NCBI GenBank assembly: GCA_002793915.1
Contig: PFEF01000003.1
Coordinates: 18,854-82,853 of the forward strand
Source of the DNA: Candidatus Ryanbacteria bacterium CG10_big_fil_rev_8_21_14_0_10_43_42
GTDB lineage: Bacteria; Patescibacteriota; Minisyncoccia; Ryanbacterales; 2-02-FULL-48-12
Length of the DNA stretch: 64,000 nucleotides
Direction: 5' to 3'
Shown here: piece by piece, positions 9,461-32,723 of the stretch
Numbering within the stretch: the stretch's first letter is position 1
Layout: every line of letters starts with the position of its first letter
Notes under the pieces: generated by a model
Told to the model about the DNA's origin: nothing
What the model saw: the letters and a program-made list of their open reading frames with translations, nothing else
Databases searched by the model: none
Made by a program: the position numbers and the translations under genes

Positions 9461-9532
9461 CGGTCTGTAGCTCAATGGTAGAGCGCTGAGCTTATACCTC
9501 AGTGGTTGTAGGTTCGATCCCTACCAGACCGA
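9461..9532 (+). tRNA. tRNA-Ile (anticodon TAT)
   Basis: Manual fold: acceptor CGGTCTG/CAGACCG, D-arm GCTC-AATGGTA-GAGC, anticodon stem CTGAG/CTCAG with loop CTTATAC (34-36 = TAT), T-arm GTAGG-TTCGATC-CCTAC, discriminator A. Confidence 0.7.
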
Positions 9533-9539
9533 CAAAAAA

Positions 9540-26258: not shown

Positions 26259-26342
26259 GGGCAAGTGTCGGAATTGGTAGACGATCACGACTCAAAATCG
26301 TGTGGCCGTATGGCCGTGTGGGTTCGAGTCCCACCTTGCCCA
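26259..26342 (+). tRNA. tRNA-Leu (anticodon CAA)
   Basis: Acceptor GGGCAAG/CTTGCCC, anticodon stem CACGA/TCGTG with loop CTCAAAA, long variable arm GGCCGTATGGCC, T-arm GTGGG-TTCGAGT-CCCAC. Confidence 0.85.
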
Positions 26343-26429
26343 CTCTTTACCAGTAAGATTTGGTTGTGGTTGTTTCGCACGAGTGCGCCAACCGCGACGA
26401 TGTGTTGAGGGTAATTCATATACGTTAAA

Positions 26430-27296
26430 CTAGAGAGTAGATATCCTACTGTCTTGTAAAAATGGTGTAATATCTTCTGCTGGGATTTCGCGACCAATTG
26501 AAACTTCGGGTGTATATATTACGCCATGCCAGTCGCTTCCACCGGTGATATAGAGCCCCAATTTCCTGCCGAGATTTCTTAATGTGATGACTTCGTCTTC
26601 GGAATGTTTTGGGTAATAGACCTCTAATCCTAAAAGTCCCTCCTTTGCGAGGTTGGCTAATATTTCCTCATATGCTACATGTCCAAGCTTTCGTAACTCT
26701 CTCCCAGAATGAGCCAAGACAGGGATGCCACCTGCGCTGGCGATAAGCTGAAAACTTTCTTTTGGCGTCATCATCCACGTATCATCTTCCTGTTCTATAA
26801 AAACATACTTCCTCAAAACATCTTTAACGGTGATATTTCCTTTAAGATGTTGCGCTACTATTCTCGCGATAGTGTTTCTGCTCACATAGGCTTCATGTCC
26901 GGCGAGTCTGAGCGATTGAAAATCCATTCTCAGGTCTGGAAGTAATTTGTTAATTTTATCAATTATTGCGATTGCCCGACGATTATAGCCATCAATCGTT
27001 CGCTGCAGATTCTTATTCAATATTTCTCGATTGAGTTGTCTGCCATACCCAAGGATATGCAAAGAGAAGTTACTTCCAGACATACGATACAATGTAGAAA
27101 TTTCTACACCATCGATATACTGAATTTGGTTCTTTTCCGCATACGTTTTTATACTTGCGGTGTCTGGAAGGAAATTGTGATCAGTAATTGAAAAGATGGA
27201 GGTTTTCTTGTTTCTTGCCTTATCTATGATTTCTTCCGGCGATAACTCACCGTCGGAAAAATATGAATGTGTGTGCAAATCTAAATACATATACAA
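26430..27296 (-). CDS. PHP-domain phosphoesterase (TrpH/YciV-like)
   Basis: N-terminal LDLHTHSYFSDGELSPEEIIDKA matches the PHP metal-binding motif of TrpH/YciV. Further His/Asp ligands (ITDHN, HILGYG, LAHSG, GGSDWHG). 288 aa. Confidence 0.75.
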   Translation of the reverse strand: MYMYLDLHTHSYFSDGELSPEEIIDKARNKKTSIFSITDHNFLPDTASIKTYAEKNQIQYIDGVEISTLYRMSGSNFSLHILGYGRQLNREILNKNLQRTIDGYNRRAIAIIDKINKLLPDLRMDFQSLRLAGHEAYVSRNTIARIVAQHLKGNITVKDVLRKYVFIEQEDDTWMMTPKESFQLIASAGGIPVLAHSGRELRKLGHVAYEEILANLAKEGLLGLEVYYPKHSEDEVITLRNLGRKLGLYITGGSDWHGVIYTPEVSIGREIPAEDITPFLQDSRISTL

Positions 27297-27359
27297 ATGA
27301 TATTTTATATTATAACAAAAAGCTCCCGTCGGGTTAAATTTTCCGGCGGGAGCGTGGGT

Positions 27360-28133
27360 TCAACGCGAGCGAAGTGTATGACACAAGGACTGGTAATCTG
27401 CCTTAAACTGATCGCCGTGAATAACGAGATTGAAAAGACTCTCATACCAGTTCATGAGCAGCACGCCACGCTCAAAGTCTATTGACTTTTTGCAAGCGGA
27501 CAAAAAATCGATGGCAGTCGTTGAATCCACTCCATAGAATCGATCAAATGCCTCGAAGCATCCCTCAAGATTCGATGGAGGGATGACATAATCTGTTCTT
27601 AGCCTGCATGCTTGATATGTAAGCGCATTTCCTGGACCGTGTAGCAACTTGCTGACGAATATTCTTCCTTCTTCTCCGTTAAATGACCGTACGAGTTGGC
27701 GTCTACATATCGTTCTGTTGTCATGAAGTACATAGGCTGTAAGGTCAGCGAAGGAAAATCTGTGGACAGCGGTACTAATTGGTGTCACGCGGAAAACACC
27801 TTTGATGTCGCGACCGAAGACCAGTGATGGATTATATCGCGGATACCACAATGGAGAATTCCGATCAACAAACTCATCGACCGTGTGAGGCACCAGGTCT
27901 GTATCCTGGCCGGTCTTTTCCGTCAACGAGCGCCGTATGTCTCGCAATGTGCGATAATGCTCCGCATCCACGATACCGAAATTGCTCTCTACAATGACAG
28001 CAACATCCATATCTACGGATAGTTCGTTGTAGAGCCATGATCCATATATCCTAGCACTCGAGATGCAAGGTGCATTTTGCAGGACTTCTTGAACATTCTG
28101 AAGAATTAGTTCGCGTTCTTCATTCATTTTCAT
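27360..28133 (-). CDS. Pol-beta-superfamily nucleotidyltransferase with C-terminal helical domain (ANT/AadA-like minimal NTase architecture)
   Basis: hG[GS]x8-DhD motif (IYGSWLYNELSVDMDVAV). A candidate third acidic residue lies about 40 aa later (QDTDLV). About 150 aa of helical C-terminal domain. Strong GGAGGT SD 3-4 nt before the ATG. 63 nt upstream of, and co-directional with, the PHP gene. Confidence 0.55.
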   Translation of the reverse strand: MKMNEERELILQNVQEVLQNAPCISSARIYGSWLYNELSVDMDVAVIVESNFGIVDAEHYRTLRDIRRSLTEKTGQDTDLVPHTVDEFVDRNSPLWYPRYNPSLVFGRDIKGVFRVTPISTAVHRFSFADLTAYVLHDNRTICRRQLVRSFNGEEGRIFVSKLLHGPGNALTYQACRLRTDYVIPPSNLEGCFEAFDRFYGVDSTTAIDFLSACKKSIDFERGVLLMNWYESLFNLVIHGDQFKADYQSLCHTLRSR

Positions 28134-28271
28134 TACCTCCGTTTTGTGGTTGTAAATGTACTGCTTTGAGAAACCCGCTATGAATTTCTCACGGCGCTAC
28201 CGTAACACAATTTCTCACTTGATACAAAAGACCCTGCGTTAAAAATCCGCCGTGCATTCCTCATTGAATCC

Positions 28272-28288
28272 TGCCGCCCGCGCGTCAG
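28272..28288. repeat. GC-rich 17-18 bp motif TGCCGCCCGCGCGTCAG (left copy), embedded in an imperfect GC hairpin (CTGCCGCCC...GGCGGGCAG)
   Basis: Near-identical to 31113-31130. The two copies bracket the MTase-REase-Vsr cassette as imperfect direct repeats. Local GC is far above the surrounding sequence. Confidence 0.5.
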
Positions 28289-28518
28289 CGGAGGCGGGCA
28301 GCGGGGCGGGAGAGCGTACGATTTTGGTCAGAGCCACCACACGTTCCGCGCGGCACATTGTCAGCGATAGTATTGGTATAAAGCCAAAAAATTGCTAAAA
28401 TGTAGTTAGCGGAACATCCACAGGTCAAAACTAGCTGCTTTTTTCTGAAAAACCATATAGAATTAAGTTATGGGCGTTGGCCGTCCGGCGCGCCAAGCCC
28501 AAAATTAAGCTAATTTTT

Positions 28519-29535
28519 ATGAGCAATAAAACTTACAAAACTTTAGACCTGTTCGCCGGTATCGGAGGAATCCGAATGGGCTTTGAACGCGCCGGATTTG
28601 AAACAGTTTTTTCCAACGACTTTGACCCTTACTGCAAGCCAACCTACGATCTGAATTACAAAACGGCGCAGCTCGCTGTTGGCGACATTCAAAAGATAAA
28701 AAGTTCGTCTCTGCCTGCTTTTGATATTTTACTCGGCGGATTTCCTTGTCAGCCGTTTTCTGTTGCGGGTTACCGGCGCGGATTTCTTGATACAGGCAGA
28801 GGCGATTTATTTTTTGAAATTGTAAGGATTCTGCGGGACAAAAAGCCGTCCGCGTTTTTGCTTGAAAATGTAAAAAATCTAAAATCACACGACAAGGGCA
28901 AAACATTCAAAATTATTTCGGACGCGCTTGCCGACCTCGGCTATCATGTCAAAGTGAAAGTTCTAAACAGCATGGAATACGGGAATGTCCCGCAGAATCG
29001 CGAGCGTGTTTATATCGCCGGTTTCAAATCAAAAAAAGCGCATGATGTTTTTGAATTTCCGGAGCAAACACCGCTTACAAAAAGTATTTCCGATATTTTG
29101 GAGGAGTCGGTGGACAGTAAATATTACTACAACGACAGCACGCTTTATAAGCAACTCAAAGAAGCGATAAAATCACCGAATACAGTTTATCAATGGAGGC
29201 GAGCTTATGTGCGCGAGAATAAAAGCGGTGTTTGTCCGACACTTACCGCAAATATGGGAATGGGCGGACACAATGTTCCGCTTGTCAAAGATAAAAAAGG
29301 AATTCGGAAACTTACACCTCGGGAATGCGCGCGTTTGCAGGGCTTTCCCGAAAGTTATAAACTTCCGAAAGATTTGCCGGACACCAAGCTGTACAAACAG
29401 TTTGGTAATTCTGTCACGGTTTCCGTGGTAGAGAGGGTCGCAAGGCAGATGATGAAAGCCCTGCAAACAAACAATAATTATGTTTATAGAGAGCCAGTCA
29501 AAAGAACAACGAGAGTATTACGAACGGCTGCTTAA
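28519..29535 (+). CDS. DNA (cytosine-5)-methyltransferase (Dcm-type)
   Basis: Motif I LDLFAGIGGIRMGF, motif IV GGFPCQPFSVAG, motif VI ENVKNL, motif VIII/X region. Start set at the Met at 28519. The 3' end overlaps the next ORF by 56 nt. Confidence 0.9.
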   Translation: MSNKTYKTLDLFAGIGGIRMGFERAGFETVFSNDFDPYCKPTYDLNYKTAQLAVGDIQKIKSSSLPAFDILLGGFPCQPFSVAGYRRGFLDTGRGDLFFEIVRILRDKKPSAFLLENVKNLKSHDKGKTFKIISDALADLGYHVKVKVLNSMEYGNVPQNRERVYIAGFKSKKAHDVFEFPEQTPLTKSISDILEESVDSKYYYNDSTLYKQLKEAIKSPNTVYQWRRAYVRENKSGVCPTLTANMGMGGHNVPLVKDKKGIRKLTPRECARLQGFPESYKLPKDLPDTKLYKQFGNSVTVSVVERVARQMMKALQTNNNYVYREPVKRTTRVLRTAA

Positions 29536-30646
29536 AGCGGTCGGTTCACTCTCAAAATTATTTTCCGAAGCGCCGGAGCCGTATATTGCATACCGCGCAG
29601 CGGAAAATTTGTTTTGCAAGGCGTTTGAAGCCGAAAACCTTTCGCGTTCGGATGCTTCCGCTGATGCCTCAAAGAATAAAGTCGGTTTCGGAATAAAAAC
29701 ATTTTTGCACAAGAACGGAAAGTCGTTTGAAAAAATTGCCGAATTCAACAGCGACCACTCGCTTTTTCGCGCACTCGGCACCGAAGAAAAAATCAGAAAA
29801 ATTGCAGAGCTTAGAAATGAGCGCATAGAAACGACAAAGCGCATTTTCGGGCTTGAACAAATTATTTACCACTGTATAACGCGGCAGGTCGGAAAAATTC
29901 TTGTCTACGAAACTCCGGCTCCGCTAATTAAAATTGACGAAATAAAAGACCTGAAAGCGAACGGAAACACAATCCAGTTTTCCGACCCGTCCGCAGAGTA
30001 TTCTTTCAATGTTGCAAAAAGCACCCTGTATAAGCGGTTTATTACGCCCGAAAATGTGCTTCTTGAAGTTCCGGTTAGAATTCTTGAGGACCCGTTTGAC
30101 GAGATTGAAAAACTTATAACAGAAGCGGGACTAATTTTTGCTCCGATAAAAGTCCAGCCACATGTATTTCTTCCGCTGTATTCTACGCGGGGAGGAGATA
30201 AAAAGGTTCCTGAAAAAAGCGGACTTAATCAGTGGAACGCGAGTGGCCGTCCCCGCGATCCGAACGAGATTTATATTCCGATACCGGCATGGCTACACAG
30301 AAAATTTCCGAACTTCTTTCCTCCCCGCGACCAAGCATTTGAACTCACTTTGCCCGACAGGGCGACAATGAGCGCAAAAGTTTGCCAAGACAACAGCAAG
30401 GCGTTAATGAGCAATCCAAACTCTGCTCTGGGCAAATGGCTTTTGCGCGATGTTCTCAATCTTTCGGAGCGGGAACTGCTGACTTATGACAAACTTCAGG
30501 CAATCGGGCTTGATACTGTCGTTATCTACAAGACTGATAATCATACTTATGACATTGATTTTACGCGCATTGGGTCATACGAAAAGTTTTTGAATGAAAA
30601 CGGTGAATCCGGCGAGGAGGAAATCTCTGACGATGAGGAGGAATAA
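29480..30646 (+). CDS. putative type II restriction endonuclease (assigned by position between the C5-MTase and Vsr; catalytic motif not verified)
   Basis: 388-aa ORF with no recognisable enzymatic motif by eye. Acidic C-terminal tail (GESGEEEISDDEEE). Confidence 0.45.
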   Translation: MFIESQSKEQREYYERLLKAVGSLSKLFSEAPEPYIAYRAAENLFCKAFEAENLSRSDASADASKNKVGFGIKTFLHKNGKSFEKIAEFNSDHSLFRALGTEEKIRKIAELRNERIETTKRIFGLEQIIYHCITRQVGKILVYETPAPLIKIDEIKDLKANGNTIQFSDPSAEYSFNVAKSTLYKRFITPENVLLEVPVRILEDPFDEIEKLITEAGLIFAPIKVQPHVFLPLYSTRGGDKKVPEKSGLNQWNASGRPRDPNEIYIPIPAWLHRKFPNFFPPRDQAFELTLPDRATMSAKVCQDNSKALMSNPNSALGKWLLRDVLNLSERELLTYDKLQAIGLDTVVIYKTDNHTYDIDFTRIGSYEKFLNENGESGEEEISDDEEE

Positions 30647-30651
30647 TCGCT

Positions 30652-31050
30652 ATGGACAAAATAACGAGGGAACAACGGAGCCGAAATATGGCGGCTATTC
30701 GGAGCAGAGGAAATCAGACTACGGAAATTGCTTTTTCAAAACTGCTCCGAGCAAACAAAATTACAGGCTGGCGCAGACATAGCCGCCAAGTTTTCGGCGT
30801 TCCCGATTTTATTTTTCAGAAGGAAAAGGTGGCGATTTTTATAGACGGCTGCTTTTGGCACGGGTGTCCGCGGTGTAAAACACAACCAAAAACAAATACA
30901 AAGTATTGGAAACAAAAAATCGCCAACAATCAAAAAAGAGACAAGCAGGTCAAAAAACAACTTATTCGGGACGGGTGGAAAGTTTTTCGGTTTTGGGAGC
31001 ACGAGGTAAAAAAGAATCCGAATCGTGTTATGGACAAGATTGTTTTTTGA
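30652..31050 (+). CDS. vsr: very short patch repair endonuclease Vsr
   Basis: 132 aa. FIDGCFWHGC motif, conserved N-terminal TREQRSRNM and KLL...GWR regions of Vsr. Confidence 0.9.
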   Translation: MDKITREQRSRNMAAIRSRGNQTTEIAFSKLLRANKITGWRRHSRQVFGVPDFIFQKEKVAIFIDGCFWHGCPRCKTQPKTNTKYWKQKIANNQKRDKQVKKQLIRDGWKVFRFWEHEVKKNPNRVMDKIVF

Positions 31051-31322: not shown

Positions 31323-32723
31323 CTATGCGTTTTCCTGAGCATCAAGAAACACTCCCATCCTGTTCCATTTTTGCCACCTAAGCTCCGACTTGGTGACGAT
31401 TTTTTTTATGCTTTTTAAAAGGGCTTGGTACTCTACCAAATCCATAAAATAGAATAACAGCCACGCAGTTGGTGCCAACAACACCAGATTTCGATGAAAT
31501 TTTACCTTCGGATCAGAAATTATTTGAAGTACTATTACTCCCGTTAGCAGTGTAATGACAAATGCGAGTGGTACAAAGTCATTTGTATAAAACGTATATG
31601 TATAAAAGATTATGAGCAGAATACCCTCGCATAACAGTAAGAGTTCCGCAAAAAGAGCTATCGGAAGAATAAGAAAGCTTAAGTAAGATTTATGCGTCTT
31701 TCTTAAACTAAAAAAAAGACTTCGGTGTTTCCAAAATGTGAGCAACCGACCAAGCTTCCAACGAAGGCGTTGCTTACACAAACTCATAAAATCTGATGGT
31801 CCCTCAGTAAACACATACGCATCGGATGCGTAACGAACATGATACCCGAAAGCTTGTAATCGTGTAGAAATTTCAATATCTTCAGTAATCATATTTACAT
31901 CAAAATTACCGATTTCGGCGAACACGCTTTTTCTGTATGCGGCCGCGGCACCTCCAACTATATACACAGCGTTAAACAGTGAGTCTGCTCGTTTAAAATA
32001 AAAGCCGTAAAGATACTCGAGTTGTTGTATTAAACAAATTGGATTTGATCGATTACCAATGACAACGTTTCCAGCAACAGATGCAACGCGCATATCGGCA
32101 AAGTGTTTTACAATATTCTTAATGGCATTTTTATCCATAATGCTATCTGCATCAACGGTCATAACGATCTCATTAACTGCAACTTCGAGCGCTTTATTTA
32201 ATGCTCGTGCCTTGCCCCCATTTTTAATTTTCAGATAACGAATTTGTACCCCCGAATAAAGATTCTCTTTTTGACACTTGTTCAAAAAATCTGTCACTGT
32301 TTTGTGTGTATTGTCTGTTGATCCGTCATTTACCACCACAAGTTCCATCTTTGGATATTTTGTGTTTAATACGGACTTTATCGTCTTCATAATCCCAACC
32401 TCTTCATTCCATGCAGGAATTATAACCGAAACGCTTGGGAAAAAGTTTTCTTGCCTTCGTATCGATCTGGCGTGTTCAACTACAGAATAAAAAGGTGCTA
32501 TAAGTAACTGTATAAAATATTTTAGGATAATTGGGGCAAATAAAAGCAATACTAAAAATCGAATCGACTCAAACCCTTCAAGGGGTACAAAATCTTTTGA
32601 CCACGCAAAATAAAACACCAGTATTGTTGGTATATAAAGAAATAAAACAAACGACACAACAACTAAGGATTGTTTAAAATTACGGAAACTCATCATATAG
32701 CTTAAGTTACAAATATGACCCAT
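31323..32723 (-). CDS. processive family-2 glycosyltransferase (PgaC/IcaA/NodC-like polysaccharide synthase), membrane protein
   Basis: GT-A fold signature SVIIPAWNEE...VVNDGSTDNT, DAD (TVDADSIM), KQRLRWKLG (QxxRW). Transmembrane helices at both ends. 466 aa. Confidence 0.8.
   Translation of the reverse strand: MGHICNLSYMMSFRNFKQSLVVVSFVLFLYIPTILVFYFAWSKDFVPLEGFESIRFLVLLLFAPIILKYFIQLLIAPFYSVVEHARSIRRQENFFPSVSVIIPAWNEEVGIMKTIKSVLNTKYPKMELVVVNDGSTDNTHKTVTDFLNKCQKENLYSGVQIRYLKIKNGGKARALNKALEVAVNEIVMTVDADSIMDKNAIKNIVKHFADMRVASVAGNVVIGNRSNPICLIQQLEYLYGFYFKRADSLFNAVYIVGGAAAAYRKSVFAEIGNFDVNMITEDIEISTRLQAFGYHVRYASDAYVFTEGPSDFMSLCKQRLRWKLGRLLTFWKHRSLFFSLRKTHKSYLSFLILPIALFAELLLLCEGILLIIFYTYTFYTNDFVPLAFVITLLTGVIVLQIISDPKVKFHRNLVLLAPTAWLLFYFMDLVEYQALLKSIKKIVTKSELRWQKWNRMGVFLDAQENA

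Follow-up and report, generated by a model that had tools for sequence, protein, structure and literature searches.

A conserved gene pair of a previously undescribed nucleotidyltransferase and a TrpH-like PHP phosphoesterase in Candidatus Ryanbacteria and other small-genome microbes

The two enzymes encoded at the locus

The window analyzed here is a stretch of 64,000 nucleotides from contig PFEF01000003.1 of Candidatus Ryanbacteria bacterium CG10_big_fil_rev_8_21_14_0_10_43_42. Its minus strand carries two adjoining genes, the first for a Pol-beta-type nucleotidyltransferase (NTase) and the second for a TrpH/RNase AM-like PHP phosphoesterase (Table 1). This pairing occurs far beyond chance and is a conserved, co-inherited module, in which the partner role is repeatedly filled by nucleotide hydrolases. 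A first-pass annotation of the sequence had described two open reading frames (ORFs) of 257 and 288 aa lying 63 nt apart, a strong Shine-Dalgarno sequence before the NTase gene, an NTase with the two-domain layout of the ANT enzymes, and a TrpH-like PHP enzyme. All of these were confirmed, the layout by an AlphaFold model and Foldseek comparison, and the PHP assignment by Pfam, NCBIfam, and alignments with 2yb1 and 7ug9.

The NTase consists of an MNT-like Pol-beta catalytic domain (approximately residues 1–120) and a helical domain specific to its family (approximately residues 125–257). Its AlphaFold model (pLDDT 96.7, pTM 0.93) contains an alpha/beta NTase domain followed by seven helices. 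In Pfam, Polbeta (PF18765) alone was matched, below the threshold (E 2.2e-4). NCBIfam returned no family at E ≤ 0.01, and sequence (phmmer) and profile searches of the PDB returned no match at E ≤ 10. The best PADLOC match had an E value of only about 0.005, to a 100-aa candidate family, and no CD-NTase was matched. When 46 members of the NTase family were compared with Pfam at E ≤ 1, Polbeta, NTP_transf_2, and the MTPAP-like central domain recurred, all in the N-terminal domain, and no Pfam family, including the C-domains of ANTs, matched the C-terminal domain. Foldseek searches of the PDB with the model ranked AAD(9), ANT(3'')(9), and AadA at the top (E 2.9e-4 or weaker, 9–13% identity) and also returned LinB and ANT(4'). 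Approximately 120 residues can be superposed on the ANT structures, with a TM of about 0.3 and 9–16% identity. Matches to HalB (E 0.027, TM 0.22) and human cGAS (E 0.45–0.7, probability about 0.1) were weaker still.

Residues Y30 G31 S32, D41 x D43, D79, H83 T84, E87, and D138 are invariant in the 46 sequences, as are R144 R145 Q146, R149, K162, H165 G166, and W229. The catalytic motif of Pol-beta NTases (GS, DxD, and D79 as the third carboxylate) is complete in all of them and, judged by sequence, the enzyme looks active. The conserved basic cluster of the C-terminal domain (R144, R145, R149, K162, and H165) appears to suit an anionic ligand. The family comprises 89 clusters at 90% identity among 5.8e9 proteins. 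A profile of the 46 sequences, searched against 1.84e9 representatives, recovered 46 clusters at 50% identity; each is a member or a fragment of the family, and nothing more remote was retrieved. Named members come from Falkowbacteria, Azambacteria, Nomurabacteria, Kaiserbacteria, and other metagenome-assembled genomes (MAGs) of the candidate phyla radiation (CPR), and a few MAGs bearing the gene are labelled archaeon, Rickettsiales, or Alphaproteobacteria. The protein is thus an MNT-like catalytic domain joined to a family-specific HEPN/KNTase_C-like helical bundle, and it stands outside every described NTase family. Its own family is small, isolated, and previously undescribed, with only weak fold similarity to MNT and ANT(3'')(9)/AAD(9).

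The second protein matches PF02811 (E 4.9e-11) and can be aligned over its whole length with C. violaceum Cv1693 (2yb1, E 1.4e-18) and with RNase AM of E. coli (7ug9, E 1.7e-17). It scores 128 bits against the NCBIfam model of 3',5'-nucleoside bisphosphate phosphatase (NF041577, cut-off 400) and 108 bits against that of RNase RNM (NF047791, cut-off 375). As both scores are below the cut-offs, it is a family-level relative and not an equivalog. The metal ligands H8, H10, D15, H40, E65, H80, H196, D255, and H257 are present in 25 of 25 partner PHPs and line up with His13, Asp20, His45, Glu72, His83, His198, Asp255, and His257 of RNase AM. From these residues, the PHP also looks catalytically active.

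RNase AM is a 5'-3' exoribonuclease that also strips flavin adenine dinucleotide (FAD) caps, and its Arg107, Arg110, and Arg141 line the 5'-phosphate cavity (PMC9410882). It acts as a diribonuclease as well (PMC11528712), and an RNase AM-type enzyme matures the 5' ends of rRNA (PMC7261194). Together with the pNp phosphatase Cv1693, these are the activities described for the TrpH/YciV group (PMC9410882, PMC11528712, PMC7261194). The PHP shares with this group the full-length alignment, all trinuclear-metal ligands, the insertion domain, and the equivalents of Arg110 (R107) and Arg141 (R140). It differs in its lower NCBIfam scores and in residues specific to the partner clade (N41, G103-Y104, S139, N141, and W174, compared with 74 generic TrpH proteins), and linkage to an NTase gene is not a described feature of TrpH genes. 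Y104 takes the place of Arg107. Tyrosine is found at this position in 25 of 25 partner PHPs, and arginine in 70% of the 74 generic TrpH proteins; the change suggests that the partner clade may accept a different, non-standard 5' substituent.

Conservation of the pairing and replacement of the partner

By scanning JGI metagenomes, along with genomes taken at one per species, 51 loci were obtained, which, with the window, were dereplicated at 97% NTase identity into 40 groups. A PHP homologue adjoins the NTase in 31 of the 40, down to an NTase identity of about 40%. Complete co-directional pairs with the NTase first account for 24 of the 31 paired groups, and two more are partial or interrupted; four groups are arranged divergently (L044–L047), and in one the PHP precedes the NTase (L050/51). 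Exact-protein look-ups added three pairs (L054–L056), in two of which the genes overlap by 13 nt. Pairwise identities of the NTases correlate with those of the PHPs (Pearson r = 0.85, 300 pairs). A search of the literature found no description of an NTase–PHP, NTase–TrpH, or corresponding toxin–antitoxin pairing.

A search from the PHP side led to the same association. Approximately 44 clusters (E ≤ 1e-43) stand above the plateau of generic TrpH proteins at 31–38% identity, and most of them are encoded on contigs whose length equals that of a contig with an NTase homologue, apparently the same contigs. These closest clusters form a clade apart from generic TrpH. In one short contig, the two enzymes are joined in a single 456-aa protein (P0171, L053 1037–2407), in which residues 1–175 are the NTase with a truncated helical domain and a complete PHP follows directly; the protein arose either by natural fusion or through a deletion. 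The PHP of L009 (10792–11622) was considered as a pseudogene beside an intact NTase. This was rejected, since its frameshifts sit in homopolymer runs of a long-read MAG, and the disruption is probably a sequencing error.

In several lineages, the place of the PHP is taken by other proteins. L018 and L020, both alphaproteobacterial (Rickettsiales-type) MAGs, encode an NTase, a divergent NTase paralogue, and a stand-alone 257-aa NUDIX protein in this order, and the first NTase of L020 (3570–5354) carries a fused N-terminal family 2 glycosyltransferase (GT2). NTase–NUDIX fusions are found in L019 and P0099, and a NUDIX–NTase fusion in L042. The three NUDIX parts have no BLASTP similarity to one another, which indicates that NUDIX was recruited independently three times, twice as a fusion. 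A DUF218 gene directly follows the NTase gene in L010 and L011, two DUF218 genes lie upstream in L037, and one lies four genes off in L013. The DUF218/YdcF fold resembles the adenine-nucleotide alpha-hydrolases (PMC12176290). Each alternative partner has a nucleotide-binding or nucleotide-hydrolyzing fold.

Neighboring genes were surveyed with Pfam at the two nearest positions on each side (114 proteins). MurA-type proteins were found nine times, NUDIX four times, histidine kinases three to four times, and Mur ligases and DUF218 three times each, followed by TypA, SSB, and others; positions three to five added three more DUF218 proteins, BacA, and MraW. The loci are mostly chromosomal, and their neighbors are mainly housekeeping genes. 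PADLOC matches among the neighbors were sporadic (one DRT, SoFic, and AbiEii; a few MADS, Shedu, and TIR; many generic domains), and no NTase relative was found in the viral contigs searched.

Where a MurA gene adjoins, NTase identity tracks MurA identity (r = 0.88, 36 pairs, mean 0.51 vs 0.49), which argues for long vertical inheritance in that clade at a housekeeping-like rate. Movement has also left traces. L001, from another CPR MAG, shares with the window a two-gene cassette of 93% nucleotide identity, and both of its flanks are unrelated to the window; this implies recent cassette movement or hypervariable flanks. In L054 (1–7697), genes for a serine recombinase and a TrwB-type coupling protein lie upstream of the pair, which resembles the cargo of an integrative or conjugative element. 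The NTase of this copy is 53% identical, and the exact protein is present on 24 contigs, with an archaeon label in one source. Overall, the pair is probably a chromosomal accessory function of CPR/DPANN-type symbionts that is inherited mostly vertically and occasionally moved as a 1.8-kb cassette.

Possible functions of the pair

As the two genes have remained together in about 30 distinct lineages, their products almost certainly act as partners on a nucleotide-type substrate. The interpretation that we tentatively favor is that the NTase and the PHP are functionally coupled as a writer and an eraser of nucleotide or RNA ends. The NTase would transfer a nucleoside monophosphate from a nucleoside triphosphate onto a hydroxyl of a phosphate-rich acceptor, and candidate acceptors are the end of a nucleotide, a nucleotide cofactor, a nucleoside diphosphate (NDP)-sugar, or RNA. 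Trinuclear-metal PHP enzymes of the RNase AM/Cv1693 type hydrolyze the 3'-phosphoester of a 5'-substituted nucleotide, the same bond that would be made if the NTase extended a nucleotide 3'-OH. Because the PHP would cleave what the NTase would form, the PHP or NUDIX enzyme may remove or recycle the product, or prepare the acceptor. The pair would then work as a writer/eraser or healer/extender couple, with NUDIX filling the PHP role in other lineages. To our knowledge, RNase AM and NUDIX are the two bacterial classes known for stripping nucleotide-metabolite caps. The data show to which families the enzymes belong, that their catalytic residues are intact, that the genes are inherited together, and that the partner can be substituted; which acceptor is used, by what chemistry, and in which order the two enzymes act is inferred. 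The idea of an NTase working with a product-processing hydrolase, raised in the first-pass annotation, is strengthened by the three independent replacements of PHP by NUDIX.

Several observations weigh against such coupling. A PHP of the partner clade (P0163, Uhrbacteria, 46% identity) stands alone between ackA and murJ, and NTases broken by an in-frame stop or a frameshift lie beside an intact PHP in L014, L017, L025, L033, and L051. L015 has the order MurA, NTase, MurD with overlapping ends and no PHP, and the NTase of L049, also without a PHP, is flanked by a Mur ligase and an EPSP-synthase-family gene. The solo PHP, the PHP-less NTases, and the interrupted NTases indicate that each enzyme can persist without the other. 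In addition, the fold search assigns the C-terminal domain of the NTase to no substrate class, and the cell-wall context (MurA at nine loci, Mur ligases, DUF218, MurJ, and BacA) may point to a substrate other than RNA. The L001 cassette and the L054 copy fit a mobile conflict module as well. Finally, a hairpin and a promoter-like box separate the two genes in the window, and their expression need not be coupled.

It is somewhat unlikely that the pair is a conflict system, that is, a defense or toxin–antitoxin module of the Clover or Hailong type, in which a nucleotide signal made by the NTase restrains a hydrolase effector, or the hydrolase reverses a modification made by an NTase toxin. Clover provides a precedent with the same two-gene logic of a Pol-beta NTase and a nucleotide phosphohydrolase, as CloB makes the linear 3'-5' dinucleotide p3diT, an inhibitor of the HD dGTPase CloA (PMC12265719). 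However, the hydrolase here is a PHP or NUDIX enzyme and not an HD dNTPase, and no HD domain occurs among the recurrent neighbors. The Clover hydrolase alone is strongly toxic (PMC12265719), whereas the PHP is found intact with broken or absent NTases and also on its own, which argues indirectly against obligate toxicity. The weak HalB fold match would suit a Hailong-like system, but no homologue of the channel HalA was found, and no membrane protein is conserved beside the NTase. The rare and patchy distribution of the family (46 clusters in 1.84e9 proteins), the movable 1.84-kb cassette, the recombinase-associated L054 copy, and the swapping of partners, which resembles effector swapping, are compatible with a conflict role, as are the restriction-modification (R-M) cassette that adjoins the pair in the window and a few MADS, Shedu, and TIR matches within five genes at some loci. 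Yet the R-M cassette is conserved at no other locus, and its adjacency in a single genome is weak evidence for defense. Neighbors are mostly housekeeping genes, PADLOC gave nothing for either protein beyond E of about 0.003, and the pair has neither a sensor or effector domain nor phage copies among the viral contigs. The tracking of MurA points to slow vertical evolution, the L015 NTase is embedded between mur genes, and cis fusions of NTase and NUDIX are untypical of a toxin/antitoxin split. A defense-island location, as expected of Clover, is not apparent around the pair. CBASS is distinguished by its CD-NTases, of which neither fold nor profile was detected, and the conserved partner here is a single-domain PHP enzyme. 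MntA of the type VII HEPN-MNT toxin–antitoxin system has the same MNT-type minimal NTase domain. The NTase described here is twice the size of MNT, is accompanied by PHP, NUDIX, or DUF218 instead of a HEPN partner, and has K162-x2-H165 and no conserved Rx4-6H in its helical domain. The defense layout proposed in the first-pass annotation found no backing in neighborhoods or PADLOC, and neither PADLOC nor Foldseek supported membership in the CD-NTase, OAS, or Hailong families. The alternative that the annotation had offered, in which an antibiotic-type resistance gene of the ANT or Lnu kind lies by chance next to a housekeeping TrpH phosphatase with which it has nothing to do, is highly improbable. 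The best full-length structural matches are indeed the antibiotic enzymes AAD(9), ANT(3'')(9), AadA, LinB, and ANT(4'); layout and size agree with ANTs, and the invariant E87 could serve as the catalytic base, a role that we presume from the base of AadA. Against this stand the empty PDB and NCBIfam searches and the absence of any ANT profile match, in particular to the ANT C-domain families, in all 46 members. Aminoglycoside pockets are acidic, whereas the conserved residues of the NTase C-terminal domain are basic and its partner is a nucleotide hydrolase. A stand-alone resistance gene would explain neither the co-inheritance with PHP nor the replacement by NUDIX. Nothing shows that the pair is a phage-defense or antibiotic-resistance module.

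A function in cell-envelope precursor metabolism, in which the pair acts on a UDP-linked peptidoglycan (PG) or glycan precursor, for instance to form, tag, or recycle an NDP-sugar, is unlikely. In this case, the NTase would be responsible for nucleotidyl transfer, and hydrolysis would fall to PHP, NUDIX, or DUF218. A MurA-type gene is among the two nearest neighbors in 9 of 39 dereplicated loci; Mur ligases (three) and DUF218 (three within two genes, three more within five) recur, and one each of FtsW, YceG, PBP, BacA, and MraW is nearby. The overlapping genes of L015, the solo PHP next to MurJ, and MreB, MreC, and MurD near L055 point in the same direction, as does the GT2–NTase fusion of L020; the GT2 gene of the window would abut the NTase gene if the R-M cassette is an insertion. 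The DUF218 proteins SanA and ElyC regulate the precursor flux of PG and enterobacterial common antigen (PMC12176290). However, the same convergent arrangement is found in seven of the MurA cases, all within one clade, and these amount to roughly one evolutionary event; the MurA of L049, with just 27–30% identity to the rest, is perhaps another member of the EPSP-synthase family. In genomes as small as those of CPR bacteria, mur genes are commonly found as neighbors. TrpH-type PHP enzymes are known to act on nucleotides and RNA and not on sugars, GT2 is not a recurrent neighbor, and neither a kinase nor any further gene of such a pathway consistently accompanies the pair. In a more specific proposal, which we regard as improbable, the pair would write and erase a 3'-O-nucleotidyl or cap-like mark. 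The mark would be placed by the NTase on 5'-diphosphate-linked metabolite nucleotides such as a UDP-sugar wall precursor, or on the 5' ends of RNA with a metabolite cap, and would be taken off by the PHP, whose 5'-substituent pocket is remodelled, or by a NUDIX "decapping" enzyme. FAD-cap removal by RNase AM, decapping by NUDIX, the PHP/NUDIX swaps, and the MurA, Mur ligase, and DUF218 neighbors would be in line with this. If true, nucleotide or RNA metabolism would be tied to the supply of peptidoglycan precursors in ultra-small symbionts.

Returning to the broader writer/eraser interpretation, combinations of an NTase and a phosphoesterase are already known from the processing of nucleic-acid ends. 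A comparable combination is found in class II CCA-adding enzymes that carry an HD phosphohydrolase domain. In bacterial and archaeal PolX, a Pol-beta core is combined with a C-terminal PHP domain (PMC9226535). The likeness lies in an NTase module accompanied by a metal-dependent phosphoesterase that cleans or trims termini. Here, by comparison, the two enzymes are separate genes, and the minimal, MNT-like NTase of 255 aa matches no polymerase family, polymerase X included, and has neither the 8-kDa, fingers, and thumb domains nor the head, neck, body, and tail domains of CCA-adding enzymes. The PHP belongs to the TrpH type and contains an insertion domain, and its NCBIfam match to PolX (E 6e-4) covers just 36 residues. 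The novelty consists in an undescribed NTase family and a specialized TrpH clade.

If the coupling is functional, the pair would add a small new enzyme family, a Pol-beta NTase without a Pfam family and with a helical domain of its own, and would be the first genomic hint that a TrpH/RNase AM-type PHP works with a dedicated nucleotide-adding partner. Almost all carriers of the module are CPR bacteria, DPANN-type archaea, or one of a few further symbionts with small genomes. These organisms have to scavenge nucleotides, and a large part of their genes lacks an explanation. Since PHP and NUDIX have been exchanged independently, the search for a biochemical activity can concentrate on nucleotide-linked substrates. 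As both proteins are small, soluble-looking, and confidently modelled, the pair is a tractable target in vitro.

Gene starts, spacer, and flanking features

The coordinates of the pair and of the features around it are collected in Table 1.

Table 1. Coordinates in the window of the gene pair, its putative signals, and associated segments
Feature	Position	Strand	Remarks
NTase ORF (Pol-beta-type nucleotidyltransferase)	27360..28133	minus	257 aa, ATG start
NTase gene, likely extent	27360..28127	minus	255 aa from ATG at 28127
PHP ORF (TrpH/RNase AM-like phosphoesterase)	26430..27296	minus	288 aa, TTG start
PHP gene, likely extent	26430..27290	minus	286 aa from ATG at 27290
Shine-Dalgarno sequence GGAGG of the NTase gene	28136..28140	minus	8 nt 5' of ATG at 28127; read from sequence, kept in L001
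Terminator-like hairpin and U-tract	hairpin 27322–27353, U-tract 27317–27321	minus	directly past the NTase stop codon
Promoter-like site, TTAACC, 17 nt, TG-TATAAT	27309..27337	minus	5' of the PHP gene; consensus match only
Upstream leader/promoter stretch travelling with the pair	28141..28250	minus	93% nucleotide identity with L001 stops at 28250
Two-gene cassette in common with L001	26414..28250	minus	blastn, 1.84 kb, 93% nucleotide identity; L001 3976–5811
R-M cassette, type II, complete	28477–31050	plus	upstream of the NTase gene, divergent from it

The real starts are probably those at 28127 and 27290. The GGAGG is only 2 nt from the ATG at 28133 and has the wider spacing to the ATG at 28127, L001 (93% identical) has AAG where the window NTase has its first ATG, and public gene calls give proteins of 255 and 286 aa. 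With these starts, the gap between the genes is 69 nt.

The spacer was analyzed for transcription signals. Its hairpin has a calculated RNA folding energy of -20.5 kcal/mol (z -3.46), and none of 200 shuffled sequences was as stable. A strict hairpin with a U-tract is found at the same place in 17 of the 24 co-directional relatives. The hairpin sequences are unrelated, which indicates that the structure and not the sequence is kept. In the promoter scan, the box with TG-TATAAT at 27309–27314 reached 10 of 12 consensus matches with the TG extension, and with a loose pattern a -10-like hexamer follows the hairpin in 16 of the 17 relatives. Four co-directional pairs have a spacer of ≤8 nt or overlapping genes. 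No known RNA element was found in an Rfam scan of the spacer and leader. The two genes had been described as an operon; with a hairpin, U-tract, and promoter-like box between them, they are probably transcribed separately here, and an operon is not established.

The 117-nt upstream stretch conserved with L001 includes a direct repeat, AATTTCTCAC (coding strand GTGAGAAATT), whose two copies lie 26 nt apart at plus-strand positions 28183–28192 and 28209–28218. Possibly, the repeat serves the NTase gene as an operator or as part of its promoter. Downstream of the pair, a tRNA-Leu(CAA) gene (26259–26343, plus strand) lies 87 nt past the PHP stop codon and is followed by parA and parB. Upstream, the R-M cassette encodes a Dcm methyltransferase (352 aa), an NgoFVII-like restriction enzyme (388 aa) whose gene overlaps dcm by 56 nt, and a Vsr nicking endonuclease (132 aa). 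None of the 51 fetched loci contains these Dcm, restriction enzyme, or Vsr genes, which makes the cassette probably an independent insertion in the window. Beyond it lies the GT2 gene (31323–32723), on the minus strand like the NTase gene.

Three further ideas on the locus were rejected. A genomic island was not apparent from composition, as GC content and skew showed no anomaly. tRNA-linked integration or a tRNA function was dismissed because tRNA genes flank only about four loci (L005, L041, and L044 besides the window), which is not clearly above chance in tRNA-dense small genomes. Linkage to GT2 comes down to one fusion (L020) and the neighbor in the window, and GT2 does not otherwise recur.

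Two minor observations concern the remainder of the sequence. Between the end of the shared cassette at 28250 and the dcm promoter region, positions 28270–28320 form a GC-rich, partly self-complementary segment that may be the junction with the R-M insertion. Elsewhere in the window, positions 9461–9533 (plus strand) encode a tRNA-Ile with the anticodon UAU, a tRNA that is uncommon in bacteria, where AUA is usually decoded by a lysidine-modified CAU tRNA.

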